Assembly: GCA_977018835.1 (NCBI GenBank)
Contig: OZ361261.1
Span: 1 to 64,000 of the forward strand
Direction of reading: 5' to 3'
DNA length: 64,000 nucleotides
Source: Minutocellus sp. GHC0000111
Lineage: Eukaryota
The notes under the pieces are model-generated. The model was not told the DNA's origin. It worked only from the letters and a program-made list of their open reading frames with translations, and did no database searches. Positions 3,150 to 42,572 of this stretch are shown in pieces. Made by a program: the position numbers and the translations under genes. Numbering within the stretch: position 1 is the first letter of the stretch; each line of letters starts with the position of its first letter.

Positions 3150-4019
3150 ATGCTCGCGCGTTCCAGCCCCGCCCTCTGCAGCCGATTCGTCGGCAGGCGA
3201 GCATCTTCTCGATGCATGTCTCCGCTGGCTTCCCGATGTTCCGCCGCCTCATCCCATGCTCTCTCGGGTCTGACGACCAGCCCCGAGAAGACAACGGCTG
3301 GCCGCATGGTAGTGTCGATGACTCATCAAAGTGGAAACTCCCACCAGCGACACTTCAGCACGGTCCAGACGGAGCTGACTGACATTCTGACGCGCGAAAT
3401 CGCCGAGGAGGAATCCAACGGATCCTCCACCATGCCGGAGGACTTGGCCGAACTCAAGGCGCAGATCGAGGAGTCCTGGCGTGTCGTCGACGGCGGTGTG
3501 TCTGGTGATGGTTCGGGCGTCGTCCGGCTCTTCAAGAAGGAGCCACTGGAGGGCAGCGGTGCCAAGGTTGCCATCGCCTTTCACTGCCAGGATACTATCC
3601 CCTCGGAGAGTGACGAGAGCACTGGATCTCTGTTTGATCAAATGACCGAGGGTGGCGGTGGTGACGAAGAAGACGAGGAGGATGCAGTCGCTGTGCGCTT
3701 TACAGTAATGGTCAGCCGTGCGGGCAAGACCATGATTTATACCTGCCTGAGTGAGGATGCCGTCGCCAACGTTGAGAGAGTTGCTGTCGTGGACGGTGAT
3801 GACATTGAGGACCTCATTGCAAACGGTGTCGACGAGAAGGCCTACCAGGGACCTGAATTCACTGAGCTGGCCGAGGATCTGCAGGGTAGCTTGTGCGAAT
3901 TCATCGACGATGTTGCCGGTATCGACACCGATGTGGCCTCCTTTGTTGCCATGTATGCCGATTACAAGGAGCAGACCGAGTACGTCGATTGGCTTCGCAA
4001 GGTCAAGAGCATGGTGTAA
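3150..4019 (+). CDS. MAM33: Mitochondrial acidic matrix protein, MAM33/C1QBP family
   Basis: Arg/Ser-rich presequence, acidic body, C-terminal YQGPEFTELAEDLQ...GID...YADYKEQTEYVDWL signature. Confidence 0.85.
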   Translation: MLARSSPALCSRFVGRRASSRCMSPLASRCSAASSHALSGLTTSPEKTTAGRMVVSMTHQSGNSHQRHFSTVQTELTDILTREIAEEESNGSSTMPEDLAELKAQIEESWRVVDGGVSGDGSGVVRLFKKEPLEGSGAKVAIAFHCQDTIPSESDESTGSLFDQMTEGGGGDEEDEEDAVAVRFTVMVSRAGKTMIYTCLSEDAVANVERVAVVDGDDIEDLIANGVDEKAYQGPEFTELAEDLQGSLCEFIDDVAGIDTDVASFVAMYADYKEQTEYVDWLRKVKSMV

Positions 4020-4183
4020 CACTTAAGTTTTACCACCCAAAAATCGAAACAAGAGGACATTATACCGCATAAGATTACTATTTGACAAGAATTATTTCTA
4101 CCAACAAAATGAAAATGTAAAACACAAAAATGGGTTGCCTATGGCAAACAAAATCTTTTGCCTGGAGTACGCCTACAATACTT

Positions 4184-5734: not shown

Positions 5735-6616
5735 ATGAAGCTCTCCAGCACCGCCCTCCTACTTGCCTCTGGCACCACTGCCGCAGTATCGGCATTTGAA
5801 TTCCCCTCCGCCCTTCGATCACCTACTAAGCTCGAGGCCAGTTCCCTCGCCGCTCCTCTTGACGACCGTCCCATCTTCGACCCGCTTGGCCTCTACGGGA
5901 AGAATTCCGAGGAGCGCAAGAACAATGGCATCGTTCCACTCGAACCCGCCGATCCCTCTGCATCATCGAGGCCTGTTACTGATCCTCTTGGCATCTATGC
6001 CAACAAGGCCGCTTTTGCGGATGCCGCTGACGTTGGCATGTCCACCGCCCTCCCCTTCGTGGCACGACCTGCCTACCTCGACGGCAGCATGGCCGGAGAT
6101 GCTGGCTTCGACCCTCTCGGTCTTGCCGCCAACCCCGACCGTCTCAAGTTTATGCGCGAGGCCGAGCTGAAGCACTCTCGCATTGCCATGCTTGCGGCCG
6201 TGGGATGGCCCGTCGCCGAGCTCGTACACAACAACATGGCACATGCCCTTGGACTCAAGTCGATGCTCCAGGCTGGTGAACGAGTCCCTTCTATTCTCAA
6301 TGGTGGTCTGGGTCACGCCATGGCTGACTACTGGCCTTATATGGCCGCCGCTCTGGTTGCTGGTGGTGCCATTGAGGCCTTTGCCGCCACGGGCGCACTT
6401 TCCAGCGAGCCGCTCGACCAGAGCAAGCGCTCGCTCGAGCTGAGCGAGATCAAGCACGGCCGTCTTGCCATGATGGCCATTGCTGCAATGGTTTTCCAGG
6501 AGGCCTTGACTGGAGTCGGTGTCGTATCGCAGCTCATGAATACACTCCATCACGCCACATTTTCTCCTGAGGAGCTCAACAATTTCTCGGCCGTCCTTCT
6601 CGCAAGGGCACTTTAG
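5735..6616 (+). CDS. Light-harvesting chlorophyll a/c-binding (FCP/LHC family) protein, plastid-targeted
   Basis: Signal peptide ending VSAF; repeated DPLG motifs; [13 protein letters not shown] and [11 protein letters not shown] chlorophyll-binding helices. Confidence 0.9.
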
Positions 6617-6788
6617 AGAGCATGCGTATAAAGACACTGTCTCTCACTCCCCGGGGTCCATTTCATACCACCTGTAACTGCATTGTTGTGTTCATTTCAT
6701 GTTGATTTTTAAAGTTGTACGTTAAAGATAAATAGAAGAGTATATTATAATTATTATCATTTAATCTTTGAGGCGTGGTGTATTTGAC

Positions 6789-7934
6789 TTATTTCCGCTG
6801 TACTTGCCCCCATTTCTCCTTGATGGCCTCTTCAAATGGCTGCTTTCGTATACGCTCAAAGACATCTCGATGAGGGGACGCTTCAGACGACTGAGCGGAT
6901 TGATTATGCAGTAAGCTGTATCGATCGTAATGAACAGGTACCTTTTGAGCTCGGGGCGACTTCCCTGCGCCCAGTTTCGTCTCCACATCTTCAAGCGATA
7001 CGTCAAGCGGGGGGTAAGCGAAATACACGAGAGAACACCGACTTTCCTTTCCTTCTGTTCTGAATGGACAAAGAACTTGATGGCGGGGAGATGGATATTC
7101 ACCGCCGGTTGCCAAACTGAGAAAATCTCCGACGTGCACAAATAAATTTACCGCTTCCTCTGACAAACCATCTCCTGGATCGCCCATTGATGCAGCAACG
7201 TCACTCCACTTATCGCACTCGTGGCAATAGGTCTGCAAGCCGCCTGACGTATCTTGCCAAACAATTGTAAGCGATCCCCAGTCACTGTGCGCACTGCTTC
7301 CGGGGCAAGACTCGCGGGATTCTACCGATGTCAAAGCATCATATCTGAACACTCTCATGAGATCCATGCAGCACTGATCATCATCAGATGGCTGATCCGA
7401 ACACAAACACGGACCATTGTGAAGGACAATATTCGGATCAATACCCAATAACTGCACGACAATCTCGGCCGCGCGGTGCAGACCATCCGTCCATCCTTCC
7501 GCCATATGAAGCCGTTGGCTCACACTTTTACATTCATCGGTATTGTCGTCGGCACTTTTCGCCGCATGACAACGTCTTAGCTCCCAGCTTTGCTTGGGTT
7601 CCGGCTGTTCAGCGGCGCCGGACTCCGAGGTCCTGCCTCGGTAGGTCGCACTCCGCCAGGAAGACGCAGCGAGATACGACGTCTCGACCAGTCCGCCGTC
7701 TGGATTCAACTTTGCAAATTGTATCATCTCTGCATCAAATAATGACTCAATGTCCGAACTCAAATCGCCTCGTAGGTTGTTCAACGGAGAAGTTTGGTCA
7801 GGAGGAACGCCGGAGAATCGAAGGTGAAAGCACCCATGGGAACGGCAGGCGTCTCGAACGCTGGTACTAGCAGCGCTGATTGAGCTCGCATCCACACTGA
7901 TTACGGGGTGGGGAGCGCACGTGCAGGAGGTCAT
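6789..7934 (-). CDS. 2-oxoglutarate/Fe(II) oxygenase (IPNS-like)
   Basis: HSD(WGSLT)...H(QV) iron triad, R-x-S 2OG-binding motif, GGLQ and VHVGDFL motifs. Confidence 0.9.
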   Translation of the reverse strand: MTSCTCAPHPVISVDASSISAASTSVRDACRSHGCFHLRFSGVPPDQTSPLNNLRGDLSSDIESLFDAEMIQFAKLNPDGGLVETSYLAASSWRSATYRGRTSESGAAEQPEPKQSWELRRCHAAKSADDNTDECKSVSQRLHMAEGWTDGLHRAAEIVVQLLGIDPNIVLHNGPCLCSDQPSDDDQCCMDLMRVFRYDALTSVESRESCPGSSAHSDWGSLTIVWQDTSGGLQTYCHECDKWSDVAASMGDPGDGLSEEAVNLFVHVGDFLSLATGGEYPSPRHQVLCPFRTEGKESRCSLVYFAYPPLDVSLEDVETKLGAGKSPRAQKVPVHYDRYSLLHNQSAQSSEASPHRDVFERIRKQPFEEAIKEKWGQVQRK

Positions 7935-8197: not shown

Positions 8198-8411
8198 TTC
8201 ATGACCATGAAGCCAATAATCTCTGCCACCAGAAGACCACCAAGATGTTGGTGAATCGTCATCACAACCTCTGCATCTCTTCTCCATATGTGTAGCTTGG
8301 CTCGCAGTACATAAGTAAGACCAATGATGGAACAAAACTCGTGAAAATTGCCGATCGGCGCATGTCATGTACCTCCACCACGGCGAGAAATCTCTACAAA
8401 TTGCACAGAAA
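8198..8411. repeat. Direct repeat copy A (~215 bp)
   Basis: Aligns by eye to 11222-11434 (ttcatgaccatgaagccaat...ttgcacagaaa) with scattered substitutions and small indels. Confidence 0.9.
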
Positions 8412-11221: not shown

Positions 11222-11434
11222 TTCATGACCATGAAGCCAATCTCTGCCCCATAAGACCACCAAGATGATGATGAATCGTCATCACAACCTATGCATCTCT
11301 TCTTCGCATGCGTAGCTTGGCTCACAATGCATGAGCAAGACCAATGATGGAACGAAATTCGTGAAAATCGCCGATCGGTGCATGTCTGTCACGAACCTCC
11401 ACCATGGCAAGAAATCGCTACAATTGCACAGAAA
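11222..11434. repeat. Direct repeat copy B (~213 bp)
   Basis: Homologous to 8198-8411. Confidence 0.9.
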
Positions 11435-16602: not shown

Positions 16603-17394
16603 CTATGCGGTCTTAGCGGCCTTTTGGCACTGGCGGATGCTGCTAGGAGGAGTAGGCTGACGACTTTCTCCTCCGAATGATAGCTTGGATGTAAGCTGCA
16701 TTTCCAGGGCTGTGAGATTCTGCTGGAGCATCTCGTTGGCCTTTTGACGACGGTGTCGGTGAGCGTGTGAGTGGTTGCTCCGGTCCATGTCTTCCGACAT
16801 TTCATCTGTGTCTGTCGGAGGTGTTTGAGAACGGTATAGCGCTCGCCTCTTGTCGGTAGAAGAAGAAGAAGATGACGAAGATTGTGCCGAGTTTGACCTC
16901 TTCATCTTCATGGTAGGAACGACGTGGTTGAGAACGTATCGGAGATCGCCAGATGCAATCTCGATGGCTCTGTCTCGTGCATATTTCGTAGCATGTAGAG
17001 AAGCACTAGCGATAAGGTCCGGTTCCTCTTCGCCCATCTGGTGCTGTCGCTCTTGCTCGACCAGGACGGCGCGAACAGCCCGTTTACGTCTGGCCTTCTT
17101 TTCCCTAGATGCATCGGAAGTGACCATGTGCTCGATCCCGCGAAAACAGGTGGCGTCATCGGTGGACTCGTCTTCTCTTCCAGAGAGGATCTCTTTGATG
17201 GAATATCCCTTCTTGTAAAGACGGCGCATGATAACGACGTCAGAGACGACGGCATCACGGGACGCTTCTTCCTCTTCATCTTGCAACCAGAGTTGATGAA
17301 TCTGTTTTTGGGTAAATTCGGAAAGGCCCGGGACGAGGTAGATCCGTGCCGATGGGGCGAAGCTGACTTCCTTTGGCAATCTCGGCGGCGACAT
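16603..17394 (-). CDS. Uncharacterised family protein (VxF...RGIEH...EQERQ), paralog 1
   Basis: Shares motifs with 27861-28700 and 33123-33890. Confidence 0.75.
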   Translation of the reverse strand: MSPPRLPKEVSFAPSARIYLVPGLSEFTQKQIHQLWLQDEEEEASRDAVVSDVVIMRRLYKKGYSIKEILSGREDESTDDATCFRGIEHMVTSDASREKKARRKRAVRAVLVEQERQHQMGEEEPDLIASASLHATKYARDRAIEIASGDLRYVLNHVVPTMKMKRSNSAQSSSSSSSSTDKRRALYRSQTPPTDTDEMSEDMDRSNHSHAHRHRRQKANEMLQQNLTALEMQLTSKLSFGGESRQPTPPSSIRQCQKAAKTA

Positions 17395-17965
17395 GTTGGC
17401 AGAGGTTGGTTGGAAGATAGATCGATCAAGACCTGGGCGCAATTGCAATTGCAATGTTGTGTTGAATGTGAGAGCGAGATACTGTATGGTACTGTATGGC
17501 TCAAATGCACAAAAATAGGCCGAGAGCTAAACGATTACGACCAGGCCAAGGGCTAAATTATGCTCCCTCCCCTTCAAGAATTCACCGAATTCTGACAATG
17601 AAAACGTCGCAAGGTGAACGTTACTTAGAGATCATTTGAGTTCGGCGGAAGATTCTTTGTGTTTGTTTCGGATTACGATTAACGCACCTTAAGATACGGC
17701 CACGCAACACACACCTATTGCCTATTTTGATCGTTGTGCGGCGTTGTGTGTTTGGCTGCGTGGCACGCACGGCGAAGGCGTGCGTGGACTTCGCTTTTAC
17801 CTTTTTCTTCAATTATGCCAACATCGAGGCCTACCGACACCCGGCAATGTCGGGGGGCTGTTGATCATGCGAAAAATACATTGAAAGAAACTCCTCAAAA
17901 GACACAGAAAGTCATTACGACCAGCTCTAACGGGACCAACTCTCAAGGCCGGGCAAGCAGTGCTG

Positions 17966-18603
17966 CCGGTAGATCTACCATACATGCTAGGGCGGGAACA
18001 TACTCTTCAATAAAAATAGTTGAAGCGTTTAGTGCTGAGTGTCTCTTACCATACAAAACGCTGGCAAAACCCAACACATCTCGAAAATGAGCCAAGGCGA
18101 TGGCAAAGAGGCAGCAAAATGGAGGGCGGCGGACAATTCCACAACAATCAACCAATGGCAGGTGCCTTCAAATGTATGATGGACGATATGGAGCGGCGGC
18201 GGCGCGAGGAGACGCGGCGAAAGCATATCATTTCGCATTTTTCGTCACTTTTCCGGTCGTCAGTGACCGCCTGGGCACCGGAAATGGTACAAGATACCGT
18301 TGTTTTGGACGCATATCGACTCGGAATCCCGGACCACCGCACCGAATGTTTCAGTATGGTTCATGAGAGAAGTAACATCGAAAGAACGAGGCGTTTTGGT
18401 GCTCAGTAGCCTCAGAAGTGCCCGATCGTAGCTCACGGTCTACTACTACGTGTAGTTTGTTAGTGAAAAAATTAGTTGAAGCGTTTGTCTAATTGAAGAG
18501 TTTGTTCCCGTACTAGCATGTAACTTTAAATTCCCTCAATAACCTACGAAAAGTAAAGATCTAGCAGCTAGCGGACCTGCATCTATACCGGGTGATCTAC
18601 CGG
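17966..18603. mobile_element. Degenerate MITE-like / inverted-repeat element
   Basis: 31-bp inverted repeat 17981-18011 vs 18492-18522 (3 mismatches); outer ccggtagatc/gatctaccgg pair; direct repeat tagttgaagcgttt at 18017 and 18473. Confidence 0.5.
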
Positions 18604-18639
18604 TAGGGATCCCTACAGCACCCTTGGCGAAACAGTGCA

Positions 18640-20664
18640 TCAAATGATTTCCCTCAAAATCTCCTTCGTCAATACGTCTTGATTTGGGAAATATCTCCCG
18701 ACTTGTTCTCGTTTCCAGTACAGTGGCTTGCCATTCTCGTCCTTCAAGCTCTTGTCGTAGTTAAAGTGATAACGATATTTCTCGATTCGAATGTATTTTG
18801 GTCCTCTTGTCCTTACCTCGCCTCCACTGCTATTGTCATAATTGGAATCATCGCATGGACCTGATAAATCGTCGTTAGATTCGCTTGGCCCCTCCTCATT
18901 ATTTTCATCGTTCTTTTCATTCGACCAAGGATCACCGTCCAATAAAGATAAAACGCCTTCATCTTGCTCCAATAATTTGAGGAGCAACTTGAGCAACCAC
19001 GGTGAACGCTCTATCCCACCGCACACACAAGCTATCCACATGAGCCAGTCAAGCCGATAGTGATAGGGACTGATCCAAGGGCATGGTCTGGTAAGTGGGC
19101 CTGGTTTTACCTTGAAGACATACTCCCGCCATGGTCCAGCAACATTGTCGGCTGATTCAATTATAAGCTCCTCCCTCACTTCACTAACCGACCCGAAGGC
19201 ACCATATGTATTGACAAGCCGATACCTATCGAACGAACCATTCATTATTTGTCTCTTGGCGAGCAAGTTTTGTACAACAGGGATGCTGAGTTTCGCAATG
19301 AGAGCTGCAAAGACCACCGAGACAATATTACGTGCAATCGGCACTGATCTTCCTATAGATGGCGCTATCGCTGCGGAATAAGCCACCACTGCCTCTGCAC
19401 TTGTCTTTAACGGATAAAATAGCTTCATCAGAAAGGCATCGTCAAGACACCATATTGCTGGGACCGCCGTCAACCAGTTAAGAAAACTCAGATTTCCAGA
19501 TGAGATGAGAACGTTCTGGAAAACTAGCTGGATAAGTCCCCCGGCAATTCTCCATTGTCGCGGCAAACCCGGAATGATTAGAAGCCAAGGGGCTACCAAT
19601 TCAACGAAATGGTTGGTGAGAACTTCAAATTTATGCCACGCCTTTGGAGCCGCGTGAAAGTATTTGGTAAAGGGATTAGGAACGGGCTGGGTTTCGTAGA
19701 ACACGTCCATGGCAGTTAGATCGCGCCATTTTTTGTCGTAGCTTTTGATTTTGATTAGTCCTGCACCGAGCATAATCCGAAACAAATGCCACCGCATCGT
19801 CCAGATAACAAGCGTTGGCACCGGAGTAGATGTTGGTATTGCCTTGAGGCTCAGCAGTGGAACGAGAAACATGGCATGGAATCCGAGCTCGGCCAACTGT
19901 GGCTCCCAACCGAAGCCATACCAGGCGTTTCCCACAGCCATTATGGACCTCTGACAAAGCCACAAGGCAAAGAGAATCGGAACATTTGCTGCACCAGTCG
20001 TCAGCAAAAAAGCTGACATTGCAATGCCCGCTTTTGCTATTCCGTCTAACCACGGATCGATCTTTTGTTTGTTTTTTGCCAGATAAAGTAAGCTGAGCAA
20101 CGGTCGGTCCATTCGATCAGAGCGATCGTAAAGAGCCTCGCGAAGATTACAGAATGTAGCGCTCCCATCCAAGGCATCTTCTGCCTTTCGATATGGCCTT
20201 GTGTTTCGGAACCAATACCAAACTGGATTCATTTCATCTTTGTCTCCAAGTTTGGGGTAATTTTGTCTCTGCCGCAACCACTCTTCGCGACGGCGCCGCT
20301 TCATCTTTCCTCGTTCGTATGAAGATTGTAAGATATGTCTCGCCGGCGTAATGCCGTTATCGCCAATCAAGGCCTTGTTCTGATGAAGCGCGACGAGAAA
20401 GGCAGTGCCATAGACGAAACCTAATGCACGAAGGAAAATGGATCTCGTGAGCCAGTAGGATCCAGCACCGACGGGAGAAGAAGAGGCAGCAGCAACAGAA
20501 GCCACACCGCTGACACCAAGTTTGGTTGGCGAAAACATGCTACTTTTGCCAGTAGTACTACGTGAGTTCTGGTTGTGCTCAGCAGACGACGCTACAGTGA
20601 CTGCTGTGGGCAGAGCAAATGCCTCGATCGGTGAAAGAATCACGGACAAGGAAAGTAAGGACAA
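18640..20664 (-). CDS. LMF1: Lipase maturation factor family protein (true start possibly ATG 20716 via frameshift)
   Basis: WYGFGWE..LAELGF, FRIMLGAGLIK, FYETQPVPNP, SGNLSFLNWLT, VNTYGAFG and SPYHYRLDWLMW motifs. Confidence 0.92.
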   Translation of the reverse strand: MSLLSLSVILSPIEAFALPTAVTVASSAEHNQNSRSTTGKSSMFSPTKLGVSGVASVAAASSSPVGAGSYWLTRSIFLRALGFVYGTAFLVALHQNKALIGDNGITPARHILQSSYERGKMKRRRREEWLRQRQNYPKLGDKDEMNPVWYWFRNTRPYRKAEDALDGSATFCNLREALYDRSDRMDRPLLSLLYLAKNKQKIDPWLDGIAKAGIAMSAFLLTTGAANVPILFALWLCQRSIMAVGNAWYGFGWEPQLAELGFHAMFLVPLLSLKAIPTSTPVPTLVIWTMRWHLFRIMLGAGLIKIKSYDKKWRDLTAMDVFYETQPVPNPFTKYFHAAPKAWHKFEVLTNHFVELVAPWLLIIPGLPRQWRIAGGLIQLVFQNVLISSGNLSFLNWLTAVPAIWCLDDAFLMKLFYPLKTSAEAVVAYSAAIAPSIGRSVPIARNIVSVVFAALIAKLSIPVVQNLLAKRQIMNGSFDRYRLVNTYGAFGSVSEVREELIIESADNVAGPWREYVFKVKPGPLTRPCPWISPYHYRLDWLMWIACVCGGIERSPWLLKLLLKLLEQDEGVLSLLDGDPWSNEKNDENNEEGPSESNDDLSGPCDDSNYDNSSGGEVRTRGPKYIRIEKYRYHFNYDKSLKDENGKPLYWKREQVGRYFPNQDVLTKEILREII

Positions 20665-21181
20665 GTAACGTCGCGACGAATCGCCGTCGTTTTCGGTGAT
20701 GCACCATCGTTCTCATCAATGAAGAATCTGTGGCGGTTAGAGTCCGAGGTGGGGCCAAAAAGTTGAGCTGGCAAGTTCCCCGAGTCCGGCATAGGCATAT
20801 CAACTATCGATTTTGAGAGCCTTCAAGAGAGAGAGAGAGAGAGAGCATCAGAGGCAGTTCATGACGACTCCATACTACACACATAGTAATCCGAACTAAA
20901 AGCCTATTGAAAACTAATATGCAGGTAGATTTCTATTATTTGCAGTTTATTCGCTCATACATGTAGAAGTGAAAGGCGGAAGCAAAAAGCAAAAGCGGCA
21001 AACCAAATTGCTTGACCGACAACCTCCAATCGAGTTCCATATTTGAGTTTCAACGGGCTTCAATGCGCGTATTGGCTCCATCCCAAAATGAAATTCGTTC
21101 GCCGCTTGCTCACCGCAATTTATATCACGATTTACTTCCTTTCATTTCTTCTTTTCATTCTCACAAAACAAACTCCAGAGT

Positions 21182-21787
21182 TTACCTTGCGAGCATCCGT
21201 GCGTAGTACTGGTCGTACTCGGCCTTGCTGATCAGCCCATTGGAATCGGGGTCAAAGTCCTCAAATCGGGGGAACTGCGATGCCATCTCGGGATGCTTGG
21301 CCAGATAGTTGTTCTTGTACATGTTGAACTCCGCCCGGCTGACCTTGTTGTCGTTGTTGGTGTCGGCGGCGGCGAACTCACCGTCGAGCTGATCGAGCGT
21401 GACCTGATCGACGTACTGGGCGAGCTCGGCATTCTGCTGCTGCAGGGCCATCACGTCCTTGTAGTACTGCAGGTACAGCTCCTTCTGCTCCTTCTTGAAC
21501 TTCTTGGACACCTTGGCCACGGCCCGCTTGGAGTGGATCTTGCCCCCGAGGAACCAGGACCCGGCGCAGAAGGCCAGGGTCTTGCCCATCCCCGGACCGC
21601 CGCCACCACCGCCGGCCTCCTTGGCGGCCTGGCGGTTGGCGTAGTCGGCGTACAGATTGTCCTGGCCGTAGCGATCGTCGGCATAGTCTTGGTAGTCCTC
21701 GCCTCCGCCCTGCTCGTCGTAATATTGACCTCGTGCGAGCTGACATATCAAAAGTAGGCAAAGTGCACGTCGCATAATGACATTCAT
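21182..21787 (-). CDS. EF-hand calcium-binding protein with signal peptide
   Basis: DTNNDNKVSRAEF and DPDSNGLISKAEY loops. Confidence 0.85.
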   Translation of the reverse strand: MNVIMRRALCLLLICQLARGQYYDEQGGGEDYQDYADDRYGQDNLYADYANRQAAKEAGGGGGGPGMGKTLAFCAGSWFLGGKIHSKRAVAKVSKKFKKEQKELYLQYYKDVMALQQQNAELAQYVDQVTLDQLDGEFAAADTNNDNKVSRAEFNMYKNNYLAKHPEMASQFPRFEDFDPDSNGLISKAEYDQYYARMLAR

Positions 21788-22036
21788 GATTGCGATTGGG
21801 CTTTAGGGATTGGATATAGCTGATGCGTAGGATGTGTCGACTGGACACAAGAGAAAGAGAAAGATGCCGCCGATTCGAATGCTCGTGCTGGCCTACTGGA
21901 GGAGCGAGTTTTGAGCGGGATAGACCGACCGCTGTCTGCAGGTTCAACAAACGTCATTCCACCTGGAGCGCGCGCGCTGTTGGCGAAAACGTGGTAACGA
22001 CGGCCAGACGAACAAGATGTTTCTGAGGCATCAGCA

Positions 22037-27365: not shown

Positions 27366-27860
27366 TGTGATTGCTAATTTATTTTGGTGCGTGTGGAATC
27401 TATCAATGCGCGTATCTTCCAAACCCGGCACGAATGACAAGCACGTCGGTGCCCGTCATGTTCTCGCGTTCTCGATCTCGTGCCAAAGCATAATGAAAAG
27501 ATGTGTTCTGACCGCCATCAGTACGTACGCCAACTCGTAGTCGTCTACGTTACAACAGCCCCTGCGACATGGATTCGACATCTTGGGTTGCTCATCTTGT
27601 GCAGCTTCGCGTCACATCTGCTTCCCCAGCACGATATCTCGATATGCCAACGAAGCAGAAGCCACGGGTTTGGGAAGAGGCGACGCTCTCATTGCGCTTG
27701 TGTGGCATTTCATTGTACCGGTTCTCGATCCCACACAAGTTCTTGTGATCGTAGGCAAACGGCAGAGTAGGAATACATGTATCTTACTTCCTACAATTAC
27801 TTCCTACAATTGATTACTCTCGAGAGGAGATCACCTTATTCAACCAACCAACACAAGATA

Positions 27861-28700
27861 ATGATGCAGCCGGCCGACTCTCCAAGATCCATTGCCAACT
27901 TCTTCACAAGAGACGGCCTCATCCAGAACAACAACAACAAGAAGCAGCAGCAGCCATCACCTCCTCCTCTTCATAGAATTCGATTCGACAACAAAGTCCG
28001 CGTCCTCCTCGTTCCATCGACCAAGGACTTTACGAGAGAAGAGATCGACTCGATCTACACCACGCCCGAAGACACAGACGATATTGAGGATGGGATCATA
28101 GAGACCATGCTTCTCATGAGAAGACGGATGCAAACAACGTCTACCTCGGCCTCTACACCACTACTATCGTTTGATGATGCCCACGAGGAACGCATCGAGA
28201 TGAGCCATCAGACATCGTTTCGAGGTCTCGAGCATTTGCTCCATCCAATGGGAGCCGCACGGCAGAAGAGGGGCCGTCAGCTTCTGATCACTTCCATCGT
28301 CGAACGACAACGAACAGATACGTCTGGCAAACGTATAATCAACGCCGATGAGCTCGCCATGATGTCTCAGCTACTCTCACGAGATGCCATTGACCGTGCT
28401 CGTGCTAAGGGCATCGAATATGAGCGAGCCGAGAAGAAGTCCTATGCAGGCATCTTCCGACCAACGCCGAAACTCTTTGACGAACATACCAATGGTAAAA
28501 AGGACGATGCATGTGCATGTTATGAAGTTCCAACAACTCCTTCTCGAACATACTATGCATCATCGACAAGCAGCCCCAACCTGATGCGATCAATCTCTCA
28601 TAAGGCAAGCAACGCATGGAGTAGTTTTGATTCCGAGAGATCGATGAGGTCGCTCAGATCATACGGGCGCCGTCAAGGGACGTCGGCAAGCTCGGCATGA
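27861..28700 (+). CDS. Uncharacterised family protein, paralog 2
   Basis: RIRFDNKVRV...FRGLEHLL...DRARAKGIEYERAE; close to 33123-33890. Confidence 0.8.
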   Translation: MMQPADSPRSIANFFTRDGLIQNNNNKKQQQPSPPPLHRIRFDNKVRVLLVPSTKDFTREEIDSIYTTPEDTDDIEDGIIETMLLMRRRMQTTSTSASTPLLSFDDAHEERIEMSHQTSFRGLEHLLHPMGAARQKRGRQLLITSIVERQRTDTSGKRIINADELAMMSQLLSRDAIDRARAKGIEYERAEKKSYAGIFRPTPKLFDEHTNGKKDDACACYEVPTTPSRTYYASSTSSPNLMRSISHKASNAWSSFDSERSMRSLRSYGRRQGTSASSA

Positions 28701-33122: not shown

Positions 33123-33890
33123 TTACATCTTGCCGTAGGTCGGTGGTCGCCTCCTTGTTGCTGCGGATCTTTCCGGGCGTACATTCGTCGACCAGGAAAA
33201 TGGCGAAGAAGGAGAAAGTTGGTACCGATATGATTTCCTTGCTTGGCGGAGATGAGTTTTGGGGCTCATCAAATTCGGGCAGCTTGCCGATGAGCCTTCT
33301 TGTTGTGGACGAGGGAAGTGTTGTCGAGGTTGTCGAGGAGGTACCAACTCCTCTTCCAAGTTCTTGGTGATGTTTTGCAGGATTAATTGAGAATCAGCAC
33401 GGAAACGCCCCACCTCAGCTCGTTCGTATTCGATGCCACGTGCCCTTGCACGATCTGTGGCATCCTTTGATAGCATCCGCGACATTTGAGCGAGTTCGTC
33501 TTCGTTGACTATGCGCCGGCCGTGCGCATCCCTCTGTTGCTTGTGGACAATTGAATTCAAGAGGAGATGGCGACCGCGCTTTTGCTGCGTTGAACCGGAC
33601 GGACTCAAAAGGTGCTCAATGCCTCGAAAGGTTGTGCCTTCCTTGTCGTCGAAAAACGATAGCCTCCTTCTCGTCTGATTTCTCATCTTGATCGTGGCGT
33701 CGGCAACCTCATCTTCGTTCTGTTCGATATCCCTCTGTGAGATCCAAGTTCGCCGGATCTCCTTCTGTGTCAGGTCTTTTCGCGATGGGATAAACGCTAC
33801 ACGATCGATCGTGCTGAAGCGGACTCCACGGCGACGCGGTTGGGCGGGATCGCTGGGATTGGAGCGATCGTGGCGACAGGAGATATTCAT
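33123..33890 (-). CDS. Uncharacterised family protein, paralog 3
   Basis: GVRFSTIDRV...FRGIEHLL...DRARARGIEYERAE. The ORF-track extension to 33956 runs into the transposon TIR. Confidence 0.8.
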   Translation of the reverse strand: MNISCRHDRSNPSDPAQPRRRGVRFSTIDRVAFIPSRKDLTQKEIRRTWISQRDIEQNEDEVADATIKMRNQTRRRLSFFDDKEGTTFRGIEHLLSPSGSTQQKRGRHLLLNSIVHKQQRDAHGRRIVNEDELAQMSRMLSKDATDRARARGIEYERAEVGRFRADSQLILQNITKNLEEELVPPRQPRQHFPRPQQEGSSASCPNLMSPKTHLRQARKSYRYQLSPSSPFSWSTNVRPERSAATRRRPPTYGKM

Positions 33891-33991
33891 TCTGCTGCGC
33901 AGCTGAGTCTTCGTTTCTCGGTGTTCAACTTTAGGTACAGTGGTTTTCCAAAACACTCCACATAGGCGTACTTACACTCGCGCCACCCGCT

Positions 33992-34808
33992 CCCAGCTCT
34001 GAGTTTTTGCCAAACGGACCGCCAAGCGCCGGGAGTACCGTTCTCGACGATTTGTGGGCCGAATTGCTTCATTCTTTCAACTAAACGTCTCTGTTGGACC
34101 ATACGGTGGTGGCTGACCCCTTGGTCCGGTCGCCGTAGCCCTTCTACACGTATTTTACGACCCCACTGCCCCCCGGAGTGGACCCCGTCGGTACCACCCG
34201 CTGAGTTTGAGGTGAGTGGCCGGCCGAATAAGTCCTCGGATCTACCGCTGCGGCATGGGGATGTTGTCTATGGGTATATTCCCGGTGTCTCCTGCGGCGG
34301 TCCGGGCGGAATCGGCCGAGAACTCATCACGGACGGTCCAATCCTGAGTTCGCGTTTTTCCACCCATTTTTCGGCCCTCACCCACCCTCCTTCCCAATGC
34401 CCCTACCATATCCCCCACAGATCGCCGTCGGCCGTCTCCACCCCCTCAAGTCCTCTCGTTGGTGCTATAGTTTGGCTCTGAGAACGGTGAGTTGGGTCCC
34501 GAGGCGGTATACGTTCGTAATCGTCGGCATGGCATGTCCGACACGTGATTTTTACCCCCCTTTTTGACCCCTCCCCGGAGGTCGGACCTGGCGGCGGAGG
34601 GCATAATGGGTCCGCCGGTGGTGCTGCTACCGGCAGCAGCCTCCCTTGGGGTGTTGGTGGGCGTGTGGATGCCCGCGGGGCGGCCGACGGGCCCGTATTC
34701 TGCTCCCAAACCGGGTCGGACGGCATGGGGATTTTTGTGGGAATTTCGGGACTACATCTCACCTCTTCCTTCTATTGTCCATTTGCTCCGTGTTGGAAGG
34801 GATATCAT
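33992..34808 (+). repeat. Left long TIR of inner element (817 bp)
   Basis: Reverse complement of 38702-39519; by eye about 9 substitutions and one C-run indel. Confidence 0.95.
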
Positions 34809-34931
34809 CGCTCGGACGAACATCATAAGTCCATTCTAATACTATGTGATCCGTCATTGGCATTCATTTGACTGGGTTGGTTGGCTTTGTTTGGTTGGAG
34901 TTGCATTTCTGACAACAAATTGCAATAGAGG

Positions 34932-36233
34932 ATGCGTTTCAATGTCCTTGCCCTTGGGCTGACGATGATCGCCGGGTATGTTCTACCGGTAGGAGCGTCG
35001 GTCCTTAATTCAAGGTTTTTCCAGCAGAGAGTCATTGATTATGTAATCGATTGTATGGGCGATGAGATCTACGACGTTTCTTTCATTTCTGGGAGGAGGA
35101 CTCGAACCAGATTCCATCCCTGTACGAGAGAGGCAAGTTACAAGATTATGCCGCAGGCTGACGTTAGCAATCTGAAGACCTGGGTGAAACACTATGTTCT
35201 CCACGGAGAACTCAAGGTTGACACTATTGAGCGACTGAGGATACTCAAGGCCAAGTTCCCCGAGGAGTTTCGCGATGTTGGTCGTCGAGGGGATTGGAAT
35301 GCCCATGACACTGACACCCTCAAGAGGATCGTGGACGAGAATCCCGATGCATACCTTGATGAGATCCAAAAGGAGATGGTGTTCGCCGGTCGGAAATGTT
35401 ACAGTCTGAGCTACATCTGGAAGCAGCTGACTGGAAATACCATTCGATACTCACTCAAGCGAGCTATCGAAATTGCTGCAGAGCGCGATGAAGAGGAACG
35501 ACGGCGTTATCTTGAATCTCGGGAGATCGGATTACCTCGGCCCGAGATGGCGATCTTCATCGACGAGACGTACAAGGGCCAGAACGATGGCAGGAGGAAG
35601 AGGAGGTGGGGTAGAAAGGGGAAGAAGGCCACGTACCGTCGCCCCCTCACCTTCACTGGCTCTCACGACCGTCGGTACTCTCTTCTTGCTGCTGCCGACA
35701 TCAATGGTTTTGTAATTGAGGCCTGTGAACAAGTCTTTGCCAAGACGAGTGCTACCGATACTGACCCAACCCGAGGTACCATCGATGCCGAGCGATTCGA
35801 GCTATGGGTGGAGGAGTTTCTTTGCCCTACGCTGGGTAACTATGATCTCGAAGAGCCTAGATCCCTTGTCATCCTTGACAATGCTAGCACCCATCACACC
35901 GCTCGTGTTAGGGAGCTTATTCGAGCCACAGGCGCTGAGGTTTTGTACACCGCCCCCTACAGCCCCGATCTCAATCCTGTTGAGGAGATGTTTTCCAAGT
36001 ACAAGGCGATGCTTCGACGGCATCAACACCTGCCCCTTGAGGATGCCCACATGGTGGCCCTTCTCAGCGTAACTCCTTCGGATGCACGGGGGTACTACCG
36101 TAATGCCAAGGTGCCAGGCAGTGAGATGGAGGAAGAGGTCGAGGAAGCTGCGGCCGCCTTTATTTCTCAATCAAATGCTGTCTTTGCTTCCTTGGGGGCT
36201 GCATTGGGGGCGGCCCATCTTGGGTCTTATTAA
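34932..36233 (+). CDS. IS630/Tc1-family DD34E transposase
   Basis: HTH-like PDAYLDEIQ; IFIDET (D1), ILDNASTH (D2), YSPDLNPVE (E, 34 residues after D2). Confidence 0.95.
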   Translation: MRFNVLALGLTMIAGYVLPVGASVLNSRFFQQRVIDYVIDCMGDEIYDVSFISGRRTRTRFHPCTREASYKIMPQADVSNLKTWVKHYVLHGELKVDTIERLRILKAKFPEEFRDVGRRGDWNAHDTDTLKRIVDENPDAYLDEIQKEMVFAGRKCYSLSYIWKQLTGNTIRYSLKRAIEIAAERDEEERRRYLESREIGLPRPEMAIFIDETYKGQNDGRRKRRWGRKGKKATYRRPLTFTGSHDRRYSLLAAADINGFVIEACEQVFAKTSATDTDPTRGTIDAERFELWVEEFLCPTLGNYDLEEPRSLVILDNASTHHTARVRELIRATGAEVLYTAPYSPDLNPVEEMFSKYKAMLRRHQHLPLEDAHMVALLSVTPSDARGYYRNAKVPGSEMEEEVEEAAAAFISQSNAVFASLGAALGAAHLGSY

Positions 36234-36413
36234 TGCATAATTTACTAGACATAGGAATTCCTAATATATATCTAAGTCTAAGTGTGTTTATAGATATAAT
36301 GCATGTGTATGTGTGTATACATCTAAGTCTAGGAATCATTCCTAAGTCTAATGCATGTTAATATAATGTAAAATATGTATTATCGGCATGCAGATGCTCA
36401 AGTTCTAAAGTCT

Positions 36414-38703
36414 CTAAAAGAGATCGGCCACAACGGTTCCAACTGGCTTTTCTTTGATGCTAACCTCGATACTAATGTCGCTGCTGCCAACAATGCGAAG
36501 AGAACCCACTGTGCAGTCATCTTGACGCAGCTCATCCGCTGTTTTTGTTAGCACCAATCCATCAGCTGCACTCCCCTGTTTCCGATCACAGATTGAATAC
36601 GAAAGAAAATGCGTAGCGGAGTCGCCCCTCACCTTGCTCACGTCATCGTCGGAAAGTCTGAAGACGTCGGCGTTCGGATTTCTGTTCTTCAACCGACTCA
36701 TGACAGATGACATCTTTTCGTTCTCATCTTCTGCGGGCGTTGCAATCGATGCCCCATTCCAAGCGCAAGAGAGGGACACCCGCTGCTTTGCGGCCCCACC
36801 AAGCATTGCATTGGCAATTCCAATTAGGCCCCTTTCGTTGCTTTTACCACTTTCGGCAATAGCAGAAGCCATAGCTTTGCTTCCATCCTGCGCTCTGGCA
36901 CCAGAACCACCCTCTCCCTCTACAGACAAAGGCTTCCCATCATCCCCGATAGGATACTCGCCTTTCTCGGGCTTCTTGCCGCCCACTCTGTGGCTAATGA
37001 GCGGCTCATCCCAGTACGTCTCATCAATGAGTTGGTCTATGGAAGGCGGCCAGGTGTCACTTTCGCCGTCAACGAAGGTATACTTCTCATAGACGGGTTT
37101 GCCAATCGCATTCTTGAGCTTGATACTGGCCATTTTAAACATATTGGGGGAAAGGCTCATGTAGAGGCTGCTACTTTCCTGAGAAAGGGGCAAAAAATAT
37201 TGCATAGAGTCAAGAGAATGACGTGGTGAGGATGAGTGCAGCACATGAGGAGGGCATGGCATCAACAACAAAAAGAATCGCATTGGGACTTACGATGCTA
37301 ATTGCTTTCAACAACCAGGCATTCACCATTGCCATCTTCGATTGCGACGAAACCAAATTATCCTGAGACTCTTCTCGTTCTGCTCTATTGGAGGAATGAC
37401 GCTTTGCGACAGGAGAATCAAGGAGGCCCGCACCGGTGTCAACTCCCTGGCTATGCGCAAGAACCTCATCATTGTCGACATCAGGGTCTGGTACGTTTGC
37501 ATCGTCTTCGCCGTTCCCGAATGCCACAGCATCAGGCTTTTTCTCTCCAAAGCTGACGAGCAGAGAAACCTCGTTGTCGGTATTTTTCTTGCGATACTTA
37601 TCAAACAAAGCAAGAGACTCCCCGGAAGAAGTCTCAGGGACGGTGACCATGCCATGGCCCACACCAGTCTGTTTGACATAGAGCCTCGACGATGGGCCGA
37701 GCTTGCCATCATACGCTGTTTGCGTCATTGCTTTGGCAAGAATAGCTGCACGAATCATTCCAATGTTGGCATTAGGAGGCGGTATGGAGAAAGCAACGAT
37801 GCTGTCCGAGCTCTCCACTCTCGGTTTTGGTACGTCAGTGGGTGAGGACCTTTTGGGCTTCTGCTTCCTCGTTGGTTCCAGCAGCGTAATATTGAACGTG
37901 CAGTCCCCGGTGCGCACCCTCGAATTGACAGTAGAGGTAGCAGCACTACTGGCAGCCGAACGCCGAACGCTCTTCATCTTCTTCTTCGATATGATAATAT
38001 CAATAACAATTCGGTCGACCTCGCCCGTTTCCAAACCAACCTTGAATGAGTTCTCAAGGATTATGGATTTCATACTTGTGTCATCATAAACAGGGATAAA
38101 TAGATTGTCCGAGATTCCACTTTTCGAACCTTGTCTGGGGCTGACAATGTCCTCCAGAGTGGAGGGATACCTGGACGAGGGGCGAACGTATATGGCCGAT
38201 CCACTTGCATCTTCCGCCAACTCAATATCCATAGTTCGACATTCGTCACTGAGGAACGATTCCACACAATCCTTGAGCTCTAATCCAGAATCGTCCGAGG
38301 ATACTTCTCGCAACTCATACTCTTTGCCCCTGAAATAATTCATCGACGGAACTACCTTCCTTGCATCGGACGGATTGACCAAAAAACATCTGGCAAATAT
38401 CGGGGCCTTCATGATTAAATCGAGCAAGACCTGATTGATCATGGTGGTGTCCTTAATGACTTGAGGATTGCCTTCCTCATCATCACTGCTGTCCCCGTCA
38501 TCGGCCTTCTTCTTCTTTGCCTTCTTCTTGCTATTCTTACCAGAGCTGCCCTTCTTCTTGGCTGCCGACTTCGTTAGCTTAGCAAAACTGCTGTCGGAGT
38601 CCGAAGCGACCTCTTCCACGACCTCCTCTTCCTCTGACGACGGATCGCCACACATGGATTTCCTTTTTTGAGAACGTGATGATTTTCTAAGATTGGACGA
38701 CAT
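36414..38703 (-). CDS. Transposon accessory protein of unknown function (~724 aa; phase-0 intron 37179-37293)
   Basis: ATG at 38703. Donor gtaagt and polypyrimidine-cag acceptor join ORFs 37210-38946 and 36414-37283 in frame (KAISI-ESSSLY). Lys-rich NLS-like N-terminus. Confidence 0.8.
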
Positions 38704-39519
38704 GATATCCCTTCCAACACGGAGCAAATGGACAATAGAAGGAAGAGGTGAGATGTAGTCCCGAAATTCCCACAAAAATCTCCATGCCGTCCGACCCGGG
38801 TTGGGAGCAGAATACGGGCCCGTCGGCCGCCCCGCGGGCTTCCACACGCCCACCAACACCCCAAGGGAGGCTGCTGCCGGTAGCAGCACCACCGGCGGAC
38901 CCATTATGCCCTCCGCCGCCAGGTCCGACCTCCGGGGAGGGGTCAAAAAGGGGGGTAAAATTCACGTGTCGGACATGCCATGCCGACGATTACGAACGCA
39001 TGCCGCCTCGGGACCCAACTCACCGTTCTCAGAGCCAAACTATAGCACCAACGAGAGGACTTGAGGGGGTGGAGACGGCCGACGGCGATCTGTGGGGGAT
39101 ATGGTAGGGGCATTGGGAAGGAGGGTGGGTGAGGGCCGAAAAATGGGTGGAAAAACGCGAACTCAGGATTGGACCGTCCGTGATGAGTTCTCGGCCGATT
39201 CCGCCCGGACCGCCGCAGGAGACACCGGGAATATACCCATAGACAACATCCCCATGCCGCAGCGGTAGATCCGAGGACTTATTCGGCCGGCCACTCACCT
39301 CAAACTCAGCGGGTGGTACCGACGGGGTCCACTCCGGGGGGGCAGTGGGGTCGTAAAATACGTGTAGAAGGGCTACGGCGACCGGACCAAGGGGTCAGCC
39401 ACCACCGCATGGTCCAACAGAGACGTTTAGTTGAAAGAATGAAGCAATTTGGCCCACAAATCGTCGAGAACGGTACTCCAGGCGCTTGGCGGTCCGTTTG
39501 GCAAAAACTCAGAGCTGGG
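38702..39519 (-). repeat. Right long TIR of inner element (818 bp)
   Basis: Mirror of 33992-34808. Confidence 0.95.
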
Positions 39520-40230
39520 ACACAGCCCCATCTCGTCTCGCCGGTCGGATGAAGCGTTTTTCGGCAGAAGACGAACACGTCACGAAGAAACCCACCAAAA
39601 CCCAATCTCGTTCGTCACCCATTCTTTGACCGTCCAACACCATGGTGGTCCGTCGGCGTTGCGCCGGCGTATAACTATGTTTTCGCACCAAACACGCATT
39701 CATTATCATGTTTGGATGTAGTTGAAGCTTACTGTATCCTCAGATTGGCCTCCGCTGCGTATCAACGCCACGAACCATCGGCCTACTTTTCCTCCATCTG
39801 TCGGCCGTTCGTTTCTCTGGGGTGGCGCCATTGCTCCGTCTTTGTGCTCGTCGTGCTCCCGTTGTGATGCCCCAGACCCTCTGGTACTTTCCCACGTTGT
39901 TGTTGATGATAAACTGCCGGGATTGCGCCGCACCCCCCGCATGACCGACTCTCGCTGATCCCGACCGATCGCATCCCCACTCGACCTCTCCCGGAACTCC
40001 GACAACAATTTTGCGCCCGAGGAGAGACAGACAGCATTGGGATAAGTTTATGCAACAATCAACCCGACAAAGGGACTTTTTGGTCTGGGAGATAAATGGG
40101 TGAGTTAAGAAGGACGTGATGTGTTTGTTTTGGTGTGCTATTTACTTTTTTGCTCAATCGCGACACTGTTTGTAAAAGTTGGATCACGCAATTCATTTGT
40201 CATTGTGTAGCAGCAGTGCAATTTCATTTT

Positions 40231-41826
40231 CTAATTTTGTGCATGCCCTGCTCCCATCTCTACATCCTCATCTCCATCGGTGGCCATCTTGATCATTTGT
40301 TGGCGCTTGTCATCAGTTTCTGCTTTAACAGCTTCGGTCCTTTTCCTTGTTCTTGCCACCCGGGAGTTTCGCTCCCGCCTCTCCTCGACCTTTGGATTGG
40401 ATGCCCTCTCCTCAGCCTTGAACTGCGCCGTCTGTTGGGCCTCATGTCCCTTGACGCCCTGAGTCCGACGATCTTCCTTAACGCCCTCTTGGTGGGCTCG
40501 CTCTACAAACGATTCGTCGAGCCAATGGATGCTGCCCCATCCATTCTTCACTAGCCAAATGTGTTGGTCCAAGATGTGATCTTCGAGTAAGTGCCACTTG
40601 GGCGTTGTGCTAACAATGCCGATTGCCCGTGCTTGCTTGAGGGCACTTGCAATCAATGCTTCAAGCTCTCTCACAGCCTTCTTTGCCTCATCATCCCATT
40701 TCATGTGCCATTTCAGAAACCTGGAACATGTTGCGTCAAGAGTGTGGAGCAAATTAGAGCAAGCTTTGCAGAGCTCTTTGATGTCGTCGTCATCCGTCAT
40801 ACCATCTTCCTCGCGATTGTGCTCTAGGAGAGTTCCTTTGGTGGAGGTGTTGTGGTGGATGAACTCTGTTGTCTTTGGTTTCTTCTTGTTGTTGCCATCA
40901 GAAATGTTAATAGATAAAGCTCTCCAGCACTCTGCCAGCACTGCCCTTATTTTACCTGAGTCGGCCGCCTCAATGCCGGCCTTTTTCAGGAAATGGAAGT
41001 GAGGGGCATCGTCATCCTCGGCATCATCGACAGCTCCCATCTCTGGCTCGCCATCACCGTGCTTCTGACGATTCTTCTCAAAGCACTGCTGCATGCACAT
41101 GCTTGCTTCATGTGCAGCGTCCTCTCTTGCAACATCAGCTTCGTCCTCATGACAGGGCACATGGTCCTCGTCTTCGTCGTCATCGTCCTCACTGATCTCG
41201 CCGGCCTCCGTCGTGGTCAGGGTGCCCACCGTCCCAACATCGTCGTCATTGTCCCACCCATCGTCCTGGCCATTGTGCCCACCCCAGGGAACTTCTGGGG
41301 GGGCCTCGAGCAACATCTGCCTGTTGATTTCGTAGTCCATCGCCGCATGTCCCACCGACACATGTGGTGCGACCGACTTGAGGAATGCGTTGCATGCCTT
41401 CGTCAAATTGAGCCGCGGCGGCGGCATTTCGAGGCGAAATTGTTGCTCGACCGTGACCATGTCGAAAGCCATCCATCCATCCATCATCATGGAGAGCGTC
41501 GGCTGCACGAGGATTGATAGAACCGATTCGAACAAATGTGCTCTTTTGCATGGGGTTCGCTGAACGTCGTCGGCAAGGCAGTGTCTTGACACCATTTCAT
41601 CCCATCCATTCTGGTTGTCTGTCCTCCTCACAAAAAACACATCGCAGTCTTCGTGTTTCTTCTTCTTCAAACCCAAGATGCCCGCAGTGCACATGACGGC
41701 GCCGTACATGATGGGACTGCATCCCAACACATTCATCAAGGAGTCGTTGTTGTTGCCGATGAAATTGTAGTGATGAAGTTCCTTTCTGCGAAGACGGACG
41801 AGCAGTTCAGCCAGGGTGTCCTGCAC
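40231..41826 (-). pseudogene. Degenerate, probably internally deleted transposase with Transib/RAG1/Chapaev-like C-terminus
   Basis: TPKWHLLEDH...GSIHWLDESFVERAHQ motif; lies within the outer TIRs; only 3 Tyr in 531 aa; N-terminal catalytic Asp motifs not recognisable. Confidence 0.65.
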
Positions 41827-42572
41827 CGCAACTCTGTGTCTGCGGTGTTGACCGCGGGATTGCGGCCGTTATTTTTTTGCTCATGGAGAATTATGGATCG
41901 AGACCAACAAGAATGTCACCAGGATGTCGGGAGTGCCTGGTTGGTCTCGTGCCGCAGTTCTCCCACACCAGCGCGAGATGTCGCCTTCGTTCTGCACGCA
42001 GCGGCGGCAATTTGAATTGTTGCCGCCATGGTGGCTCATGTTGGGCGCGCCGGTCGGTTGCTTCGCGCGCCGGCCGGCCACCGAAAGTGCGACCAAAAGC
42101 ATGCGAGTCATCCGGCTGGCAGATGGTGCTGTGGGTAGCGGGTGGCGCGAGTGTAAGTACGCCTATGTGGAGTGTTTTGGAAAACTGCTGTGCTTGTGAT
42201 TTTGCATGCTTGTGTCAACGAATTAGAAGATAAGTGACATTCACAGTGCACTTTCACACCGGCCCATCAACCCCAACAAAGCGGTTCGGTTGATCACCGT
42301 GCATCATTCTTTTCGCTTCGTGCTTTTGCCGCACCTTTTCGACAGCAGCCTGTGCGAACCGTTTAGTTTACGTTTAGCGTTTTGGCGCTGCTGCTGCGGG
42401 TGCGAACCCAAAACCCAAAGTGAGCATGGTCTGTCCGTCGTGTGCAACAAGGCACGGCGAAGTGCCGCCCAGTTTCGCCGTTCCACAGGATGACGATCGT
42501 ACCAGCAGGAATTCTACATCATAATTCCTGCCGAACAGACTTCCACTGTATCGCCGCAGTGAAGTTTAATAA

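Follow-up and report, generated by a model that had tools for sequence, protein, structure and literature searches.

The window analyzed here, the first 64,000 nucleotides (forward strand) of contig OZ361261.1 in the assembly GCA_977018835.1 of Minutocellus sp. GHC0000111, is eukaryotic and diatom-like in content, with spliced genes, and carries a TA-inserted, 5.6-kb IS630-like DD34E transposon with 871-bp terminal inverted repeats (TIRs) and two convergent genes. The plus-strand gene encodes the transposase; the minus-strand gene, open reading frame 2 (ORF2), encodes a protein of 724 residues. We consider it probable that ORF2 is a conserved ubiquitin-fold partner of the transposase and a likely helper of the element's own transposition. 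By its enzyme, TIRs, and TA target, the element is a member of the IS630-Tc1-mariner (ITm) superfamily; it is neither Tec nor TBE. The ends of the element, its target-site duplications (TSDs), and a second transposon nested in its right arm are arranged as follows:

33936..33937, no strand: left TSD, TA (sequence, and an empty allele in run X4)
33938..34808, plus: left TIR of 871 bp with CAGTGG as its first bases, which likely provides the transposase gene with a promoter and 5' leader (860/871 match to the right arm)
34212..34420, plus: 209-nt GT-AG intron within the left TIR, with a mirror copy at 39090-39298 on the minus strand (skipped in RNA contigs)
38702..39520, minus: inner 819 bp of the right TIR, which likely provides ORF2 with a promoter and leader (inverted-arm comparison)
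39521..42133, minus: high-copy DNA transposon of 2,613 bp nested in the right arm, with CACAG..CTGTG termini and GGGA/GGTA as its 4-bp duplication (sequence and contigs)
42138..42190, minus: right TIR, outer 53 bp, terminus CAGCAG (second inverted pair and sequence)
42191..42192, no strand: right TSD, with TG replacing TA (the empty allele has TA)

The transposon spans 33938-42190, or 5,636 bp net of the nested insert, and with that insert set aside its two 871-bp TIRs are identical at 860 of 871 positions. An earlier note on this DNA had placed a 5.5-kb element at 33992..39519 with TIRs of ~818 bp, but no TA duplication is present at those ends, and the right TIR proved to be split. The contiguous inner match (33991-34808 versus 38702-39520) has 809 identities over 818 aligned bases and one indel, in agreement with the ~99% arm identity given there. 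This match goes no further than 39520 because the right arm is split by a 2,613-bp element that has termini and a 4-bp duplication of its own; beyond the inner arms there is a second inverted pair (33937-33994 / 42134-42191). Contigs from runs X1 and X2 skip the nested transposon and join 39519 to 42137. In run X4, an empty allele lacking the whole 33938-42190 span connects the left and right flanks across a single TA (loose end at 33932), and it reads TA at the site of the right TSD. Contigs from X8 and X9 (one flank) and from X14 (two records) exit the TIR at 33935-33936 into different flanks with the TA kept. Had the original boundaries been right, a 5.5-kb element with CCCAG ends would have inserted, without duplicating its target, within a TIR belonging to a larger element around it, which would fit both the stop of the contiguous match at 33991/39520 and the second inverted pair. 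Such a blunt insertion into an outer element is ruled out as a candidate by the 39519-42137 junction contigs, the empty allele, and the inverted termini and 4-bp duplication that the 2.6-kb piece carries as its own. TIR contigs also extend to 33943 or 33935 with the TA retained, and the older boundaries are scarcely credible.

Between the TIRs, the following coding features were mapped:

34932..36233, plus: IS630/Tc1-type DD34E transposase, 433 aa, open frame (Pfam, NCBIfam, catalytic spacing)
36234..36413, no strand: AT-rich 180-bp spacer between the convergent gene ends (sequence)
36414..37178, minus: ORF2 exon 2, aa 471-724 (translation; homology to the protein P0070 extends to aa 607)
37179..37293, minus: ORF2 intron, 115 nt, GT-AG, phase 0 (skipped in RNA contigs)
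37294..38703, minus: ORF2 exon 1, aa 1-470, with an acidic, lysine-rich N-terminus and two predicted beta-grasp domains; start codon at the inner boundary of the right TIR (translation and model)
37972..38418, minus: predicted ubiquitin/PB1-like domain 1 of ORF2, aa 96-244 (model residues 17-165)
37546..37905, minus: predicted ubiquitin/PB1-like domain 2 of ORF2, aa 267-386, the segment most conserved within the family (model residues 188-307)

The transposase gene on the plus strand faces ORF2, which reads on the minus strand from an ATG at 38703, and the convergent layout described earlier holds. The enzyme is intact, as had also been claimed: its 433-residue frame is open, the catalytic triad D211-D316-E351 has DD34E spacing, and Pfam DDE_3 matches with an E-value of 4.6e-21. 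It scores 101.1 bits against the NCBIfam IS630 model NF033545 (cut-off 100), a model that 3 of 5 clade members pass, and its matches to Mos1 (5.6e-05) and SB100X (0.0009) are weak. The D212-equivalent residue and the other two triad residues are invariant in 20 of 20 aligned transposases; the helix-turn-helix families HTH_Tnp_Tc3_2 and HTH_33 were found in 4 and 9 of 20 clade members, respectively.

A protein search with the transposase returned 66 proteins. Sixty-two of them, together with the transposase of a metagenome locus, L001, form a 63-member clade with a support of 0.995 in FastTree (160 rows) and 99.9 in IQ-TREE (92 rows; Shimodaira-Hasegawa-like approximate likelihood ratio test, SH-aLRT, with values read by bipartition). 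The FastTree set held 65 of the 66 protein matches and 95 of 185 eligible locus ORFs, 27 of these loci being kept for IQ-TREE; it was picked by likeness to the query and carries no Tc1/mariner root. The earlier note had proposed a phylogeny with IS630, Tc1, Tec, and TBE; the IS630 part of it, in a tree without Tc1, mariner, Tec, or TBE references, yields a strong clade on a long branch, separate from the sampled bacterial, phage, and metagenome IS630 rows. Named clade members, among ten clusters looked up, are all diatoms: Rhizosolenia setigera, Leptocylindrus aporus, and Chaetoceros tenuissimus. Viral contigs (67 loci) and prokaryote genomes (79 loci) gave distant IS630 relatives only, and the metagenome scan gave at least one clade member (L001) and at least one sister (L002) among the 80 loci listed. 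L001 falls with the Rhizosolenia protein in a 16-member sub-branch (support 99.9) and the window enzyme in another sub-branch, at a distance of 2.58 substitutions per site. Small patches of a second transposase occur in X4 and X8 (35958-35998), not linked to the 871-bp TIR.

ORF2 runs from the ATG at 38703 to a stop at 36414, and, of four candidate acceptors, the 37293-37179 GT-AG intron alone yields the full-length, 724-residue product. This 115-nt intron is exactly skipped in RNA contigs from three of three RNA runs (X6, X8, and X9; two studies), which bears out the earlier claim of an intact spliced second gene and supplies the RNA-seq check suggested alongside it. The ORF list contains no third long ORF between the TIRs. 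The spacer that separates the gene ends (36234-36413) folds with a z of -2.36, and 6 of 200 shuffles were as good.

Neither exon of ORF2 matches Pfam or NCBIfam, and a search of its profile against PDB sequences returned one row at chance level (E 0.74). A model of residues 80-390, built from an alignment of six sequences (four distinct clusters), displays two domains, with a mean predicted local distance difference test (pLDDT) score of 60.5 and a predicted template-modeling (pTM) score of 0.43. In VIA-align, domain 1 resembles the PB1 domains of NBR1 (Z 6.5, root-mean-square deviation (rmsd) 3.0, 86 aligned) and MAP2K5 (Z 6.4), and domain 2 that of p62 (Z 7.2, rmsd 2.9, 86 aligned). The top rows are the PB1 domains of p62, NBR1, MAP2K5, Par3, and Cdc24 (Z 6.1-7.2, rmsd 2.6-3.8), and ubiquitin-superfamily folds, including SUMO and SUMO-like domains, dominate the 50 matches listed. 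In Foldseek, the best rows are tandem ubiquitin-like (Ubl) domains of USP7 (E 0.003-0.005). ORF2 is thus predicted to carry tandem beta-grasp (ubiquitin/PB1-like) domains, a call made at the level of the fold. Inspection by eye suggests that the C-terminal ~120 residues may form a third beta-grasp domain and that the acidic, lysine-rich N-terminus is a possible nuclear signal. Because no catalytic family is evident, protein binding is the likely role of ORF2.

The pairing of ORF2 with the transposase recurs outside the window. In the marine metagenome X14, a 3,550-nt contig spans both genes with 81/1,144 and 130/2,134 differences (~93-94% identity). Two listed insertions in ORF2 exon 2 of this copy sum to +3, its spacer is unalignable at 80%, and the neighboring host gene shows 57/477 differences. 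At L001, the transposase is 36% identical to the window enzyme and is faced by a convergent gene with two GT-AG introns that splices to 664 residues; the inverted arms of this locus (279-367 and 3973-4064) are cut by the contig end. Searching 9,466 ORFs with a profile of ORF2 domain 2 placed the L001 gene as the top non-self match (E 0.023), and its 14.0 bits were reached by none of 1,000 shuffles (best 7.9). Judging from the profile match, the L001 gene is a remote ORF2 homologue in the same layout, albeit with weak pairwise support. Of the 226 loci listed, 4 have long inverted arms, and only in L001 do these flank a clade member. The L001 contig itself starts with CAG, possibly a TIR terminus, in which case the arm would measure ~367 bp (1-367); in its transposase, an intron at 1347-1526 lies just before the catalytic glutamate, and its removal restores DD34E. 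Inverted repeats also lie near IS630 genes in a Phycisphaeraceae contig, L164 (3163-4181 / 6615-7633; 1,019 nt), where they are probably two IS copies, and in a metagenome contig, L021 (1015-1142 / 2472-2599; 128 nt).

A search of 1.84 billion representatives gave three relatives of ORF2 (82, 43, and 37% identity), and a profile search added no more. None is named, and all lie on contigs shorter than 3.7 kb, unlike a conserved host gene; sequence and profile searches found no host-gene homologue. Identity to P0069 and P0070 is 34-41%, and P0070 lacks domain 1. The longest contigs of the ORF2 relative P0070 and of the transposase P0080 have the same length (3,621), a hint to which we give no weight. 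Since ORF2 is paired with the transposase in the ~93% identical X14 copy and a remote homologue sits beside the 36% identical L001 transposase, these comparisons indicate that it is a conserved family partner rather than a one-off captured host gene, the case that the earlier note had set against its own proposal. Together with the diatom names in the clade, the two pairings support that proposal of a diatom family of two-component IS630/Tc1-type elements. Since the L001 and window enzymes belong to different sub-branches 2.58 substitutions per site apart, the two-gene layout may go far back in the clade, a suggestion based on two points.

RNA contigs from three runs (X6, X8, and X9) lack the 209-nt TIR intron; they may stem from either arm or from a sister element, these origins being indistinguishable. 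As this intron is spliced, transcription begins within the outer TIR and proceeds inward for at least one type of arm. ORF2 has its start codon at the inner boundary of the right arm; that of the transposase gene comes 123 nt beyond the left arm. Each TIR therefore likely supplies a promoter and a leader to one gene, and both genes would use this leader. The L001 sequence suggests that the leader-intron design is shared: its arm region contains a donor at 228, and on both sides the ATG past the arm is directly preceded by an AG acceptor.

A number of observations weigh against this picture of ORF2 as a conserved ubiquitin-fold partner expressed from its own TIR. At the level of structure, the best Z of 7.2 is lower than 8, the value under which the tool advises caution, the ORF2 model had no Foldseek match at E<=0.001, a two-sequence alignment gave a fold with a pLDDT of 30.7, and no canonical PB1 acidic (OPCA) motif was seen by eye in the ORF2 alignment. 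The RNA evidence consists of assembled contigs only; no RNA contig joins the spliced TIR leader to either coding exon, and the spliced leader contains five or more upstream ATGs. The L001 gene compares weakly with ORF2 itself (pairwise E 0.004; HH probability 1.9%), 2 of 500 local shuffles beat its full-length profile score, and gene context is known for only two loci beyond the window (the X14 copy and L001), L002, the sister to the clade, having no usable context. Finally, a 20-nt deletion shifts the frame of ORF2 exon 1 in three of seven covering runs (X4 at 37575-37595; X8 and X9 within 37293-37769), so broken ORF2 alleles probably circulate; it is not found in X1, X2, X6, and X14, though X2 and X4 are one sample.

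The earlier note regarded the copy as recent and possibly active, a view that the right end does not sustain. There the TIR is broken 53 bp short of its terminus, the TSD is TG instead of TA, and the left terminus (CAGTGG) disagrees with the right one (CAGCAG) at positions 4 and 5; because of this break, the TG, and TpA-to-TG/CA changes at the right end, the present copy is probably immobile. Three of the 11 arm differences have TA in the left arm and CA or TG in the right, and each terminus is one TpA step from CAGTAG, the inferred ancestor. TA positions make up 6.9% of the arm, and the chance of at least 4 of 11 differences falling on them is p 0.005 (p 0.0008 for 5 of 12). The three internal TpA changes and the TSD change, which are seen directly, are suggestive, and the count becomes stronger only if CAGTAG is the correct ancestor. 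The observed/expected TpA ratio is 0.67 in the transposase gene and 0.77-0.87 in the TIRs, which are not depleted, compared with 0.30 in the nested transposon versus ~0.6 in the flanks; the 2-kb bin of the nested transposon is the lowest of 32. TpA-specific T/A to C/G hypermutation is a process so far reported from Bigelowiella natans (bioRxiv 10.64898/2026.01.13.699255). The present locus records TpA-directed mutation on a TIR end and a target duplication and illustrates how such mutation could immobilize TA-targeting elements.

Contig depth over the interior is 75 versus 170-190 in the flank in X1, 35 versus 82-89 in X2, and 42 versus 44-60 for the flank alleles in X4, which fits about one element copy per diploid genome, although depth is not copy number proper. 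In X1, X2, X4, and X14, the outer TIR has 3.6-4.7 times the depth of the interior. Since the TIR is deeper than the interior and X8/X9 contigs exit at 34659, a sister element with a different interior probably shares the outer TIR. The common part comprises the outer ~720 bp (33938-34659), after which the sequences diverge, with loose ends at 34659, 34693, and 34743 in X8 and X9.

How the two genes might act together can be outlined with differing confidence. Judging from what is known of the family, the transposase would very probably excise and reinsert the element by ordinary ITm cut-and-paste at TA. There is a good chance that each TIR would serve as an inward promoter with a spliced leader, so that both genes would be transcribed together and to a similar extent, as in maize MuDR. 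The present copy would probably no longer be excisable, yet could supply both proteins in trans. ORF2 could be a nuclear adaptor without catalytic activity, which would use its tandem beta-grasp domains to bind the transposase or to act as a scaffold for the transpososome, a tentative proposal to which we give slightly less than even odds.

Two other roles for ORF2 compete with that of transposition helper. It could be an anti-silencing decoy, shaped like ubiquitin or SUMO, that acts on the chromatin or ubiquitin machinery of the host, leaves the transposase alone, and protects the element against silencing or TpA-directed mutation. The USP7 tandem Ubl domains in Foldseek, the SUMO-like domains among the VIA-align rows, and the contrast between the TpA-depleted nested repeat and the undepleted transposase gene and TIRs are what this would lead one to see; fold likeness gives no function, however, PB1 domains outrank SUMO, a single-copy and young element would have intact TpA content anyway, and the right arm already shows TpA loss. 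We regard the decoy as unlikely, if the main rival. In its broadest version, an old, diatom-wide IS630-like clade would be obligately two-gene, and the mirror promoters of the TIRs would express the transposase together with a tandem ubiquitin/SUMO mimic against silencing and a TpA-erasing defense; ORF2 would then be the first transposon-encoded Ubl decoy. This broadest version is distinctly improbable. ORF2 could instead be a captured passenger, retained merely by lying between the TIRs and being transcribed from the mirror promoter, as might be expected from the frameshifted allele in three of seven covering runs, from the absence of domain 1 in P0070, and from a divergence that is faster than that of the transposase at depth (34-41% to P0069 and P0070). 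But an open, spliced homologue occupies the same place beside the very distant L001 transposase, the X14 copy conserves the coding regions and not the spacer, and a host-gene homologue was not found, all of which makes a passenger more doubtful still. A conserved partner that helps the element's own transposition thus remains the reading that we prefer, and a tandem ubiquitin-fold partner kept across a deep transposase clade would, if true, be a new type of accessory protein.

In textbooks, ITm elements stand for transposons with a single gene, and in the few that have more, the additional genes encode enzymes (a recombinase, kinase, nuclease, or methyltransferase). Autonomous ITm elements usually have one ORF and measure 1.3-2.5 kb (PMC8533490), the figure also given in the earlier note. 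The window element shares with them the DD34E triad, DDE_3, TIRs starting with CAG, and a TA target duplication, and departs from them in its 5.6-kb length, two genes, and 871-bp TIRs. Euplotes Tec1/Tec2, cited earlier as a multi-gene, long-TIR example and described as such, have ~700-bp TIRs, DD34E, three ORFs (one in the complement), and a tyrosine recombinase (PMC7325037). Like Tec, the window element has long TIRs, DD34E, and more than one ORF, one of them in the complement; unlike Tec, it has two ORFs, and ORF2 has no tyrosine recombinase match in Pfam or NCBIfam and is predicted to be beta-grasp in its modeled part. Oxytricha TBE elements combine ~80-bp telomere-tipped TIRs with three ORFs and a zinc-finger/kinase partner (PMC7325037, PMC4724952), and their extra ORFs are conserved under purifying selection (PMC4724952). 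An ITm transposase with an extra ORF is common to both, whereas the 871-bp TIRs and two ORFs set the window element apart. TA-flanked mariner-type elements in viruses of algae bear extra nuclease, methyltransferase, or Fanzor genes (PMC3627910); none of those domains was detected in ORF2, which has no TnpB/zinc-ribbon match in Pfam or NCBIfam and no C4 motif in its translation. In a 4.4-kb TcMar-2 element of Ectocarpus, the extra domain is fused to the transposase (PMC12477816).

The window element differs in both its DD34E triad and its host from L31, a DD37E group. These ITm elements of bivalves and cnidarians are said to have a second ORF in most full-length copies, although a literature search found no paper on this; their hosts are animals. 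Maize MuDR has two convergent genes driven from TIR promoters, a Mutator-type transposase, and a 9-bp TSD. Convergent genes with promoters in the TIRs, inferred in the window element, are a shared feature; the ITm transposase, TA target, and unrelated second gene are not. Multi-gene members of the superfamily (Tec, TBE, Fanzor-bearing mariners) were thus already known, and what is new is the predicted ubiquitin-fold partner, with its putative function, and the likely mirror-leader TIRs. No description of this family or of a ubiquitin-fold partner was found in a literature search that did not cover most subscription journals, Repbase Reports, or supplements.

The transposon nested in the right arm contains a decayed 545-codon frame (40234-41868) with no match in Pfam, NCBIfam, or PDB, and the C-terminal motif of this frame recalls RAG1/Transib/Chapaev transposases. 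The nested transposon is ~100-fold deeper than its flank in single contigs (X1: ~18,000-22,000 versus 170-190), and it is present at high depth in RNA run X6. The two-gene element inserted ~30-50 bp upstream of a minus-strand host gene (33123-33910) that resembles 27771-28700 and 16603-17526 in shared motifs recognized by eye. Elsewhere in the window, a 138-nt direct repeat occurs in two copies (8229-8366 and 11249-11386) that are 88% alike and 3,020 nt apart.

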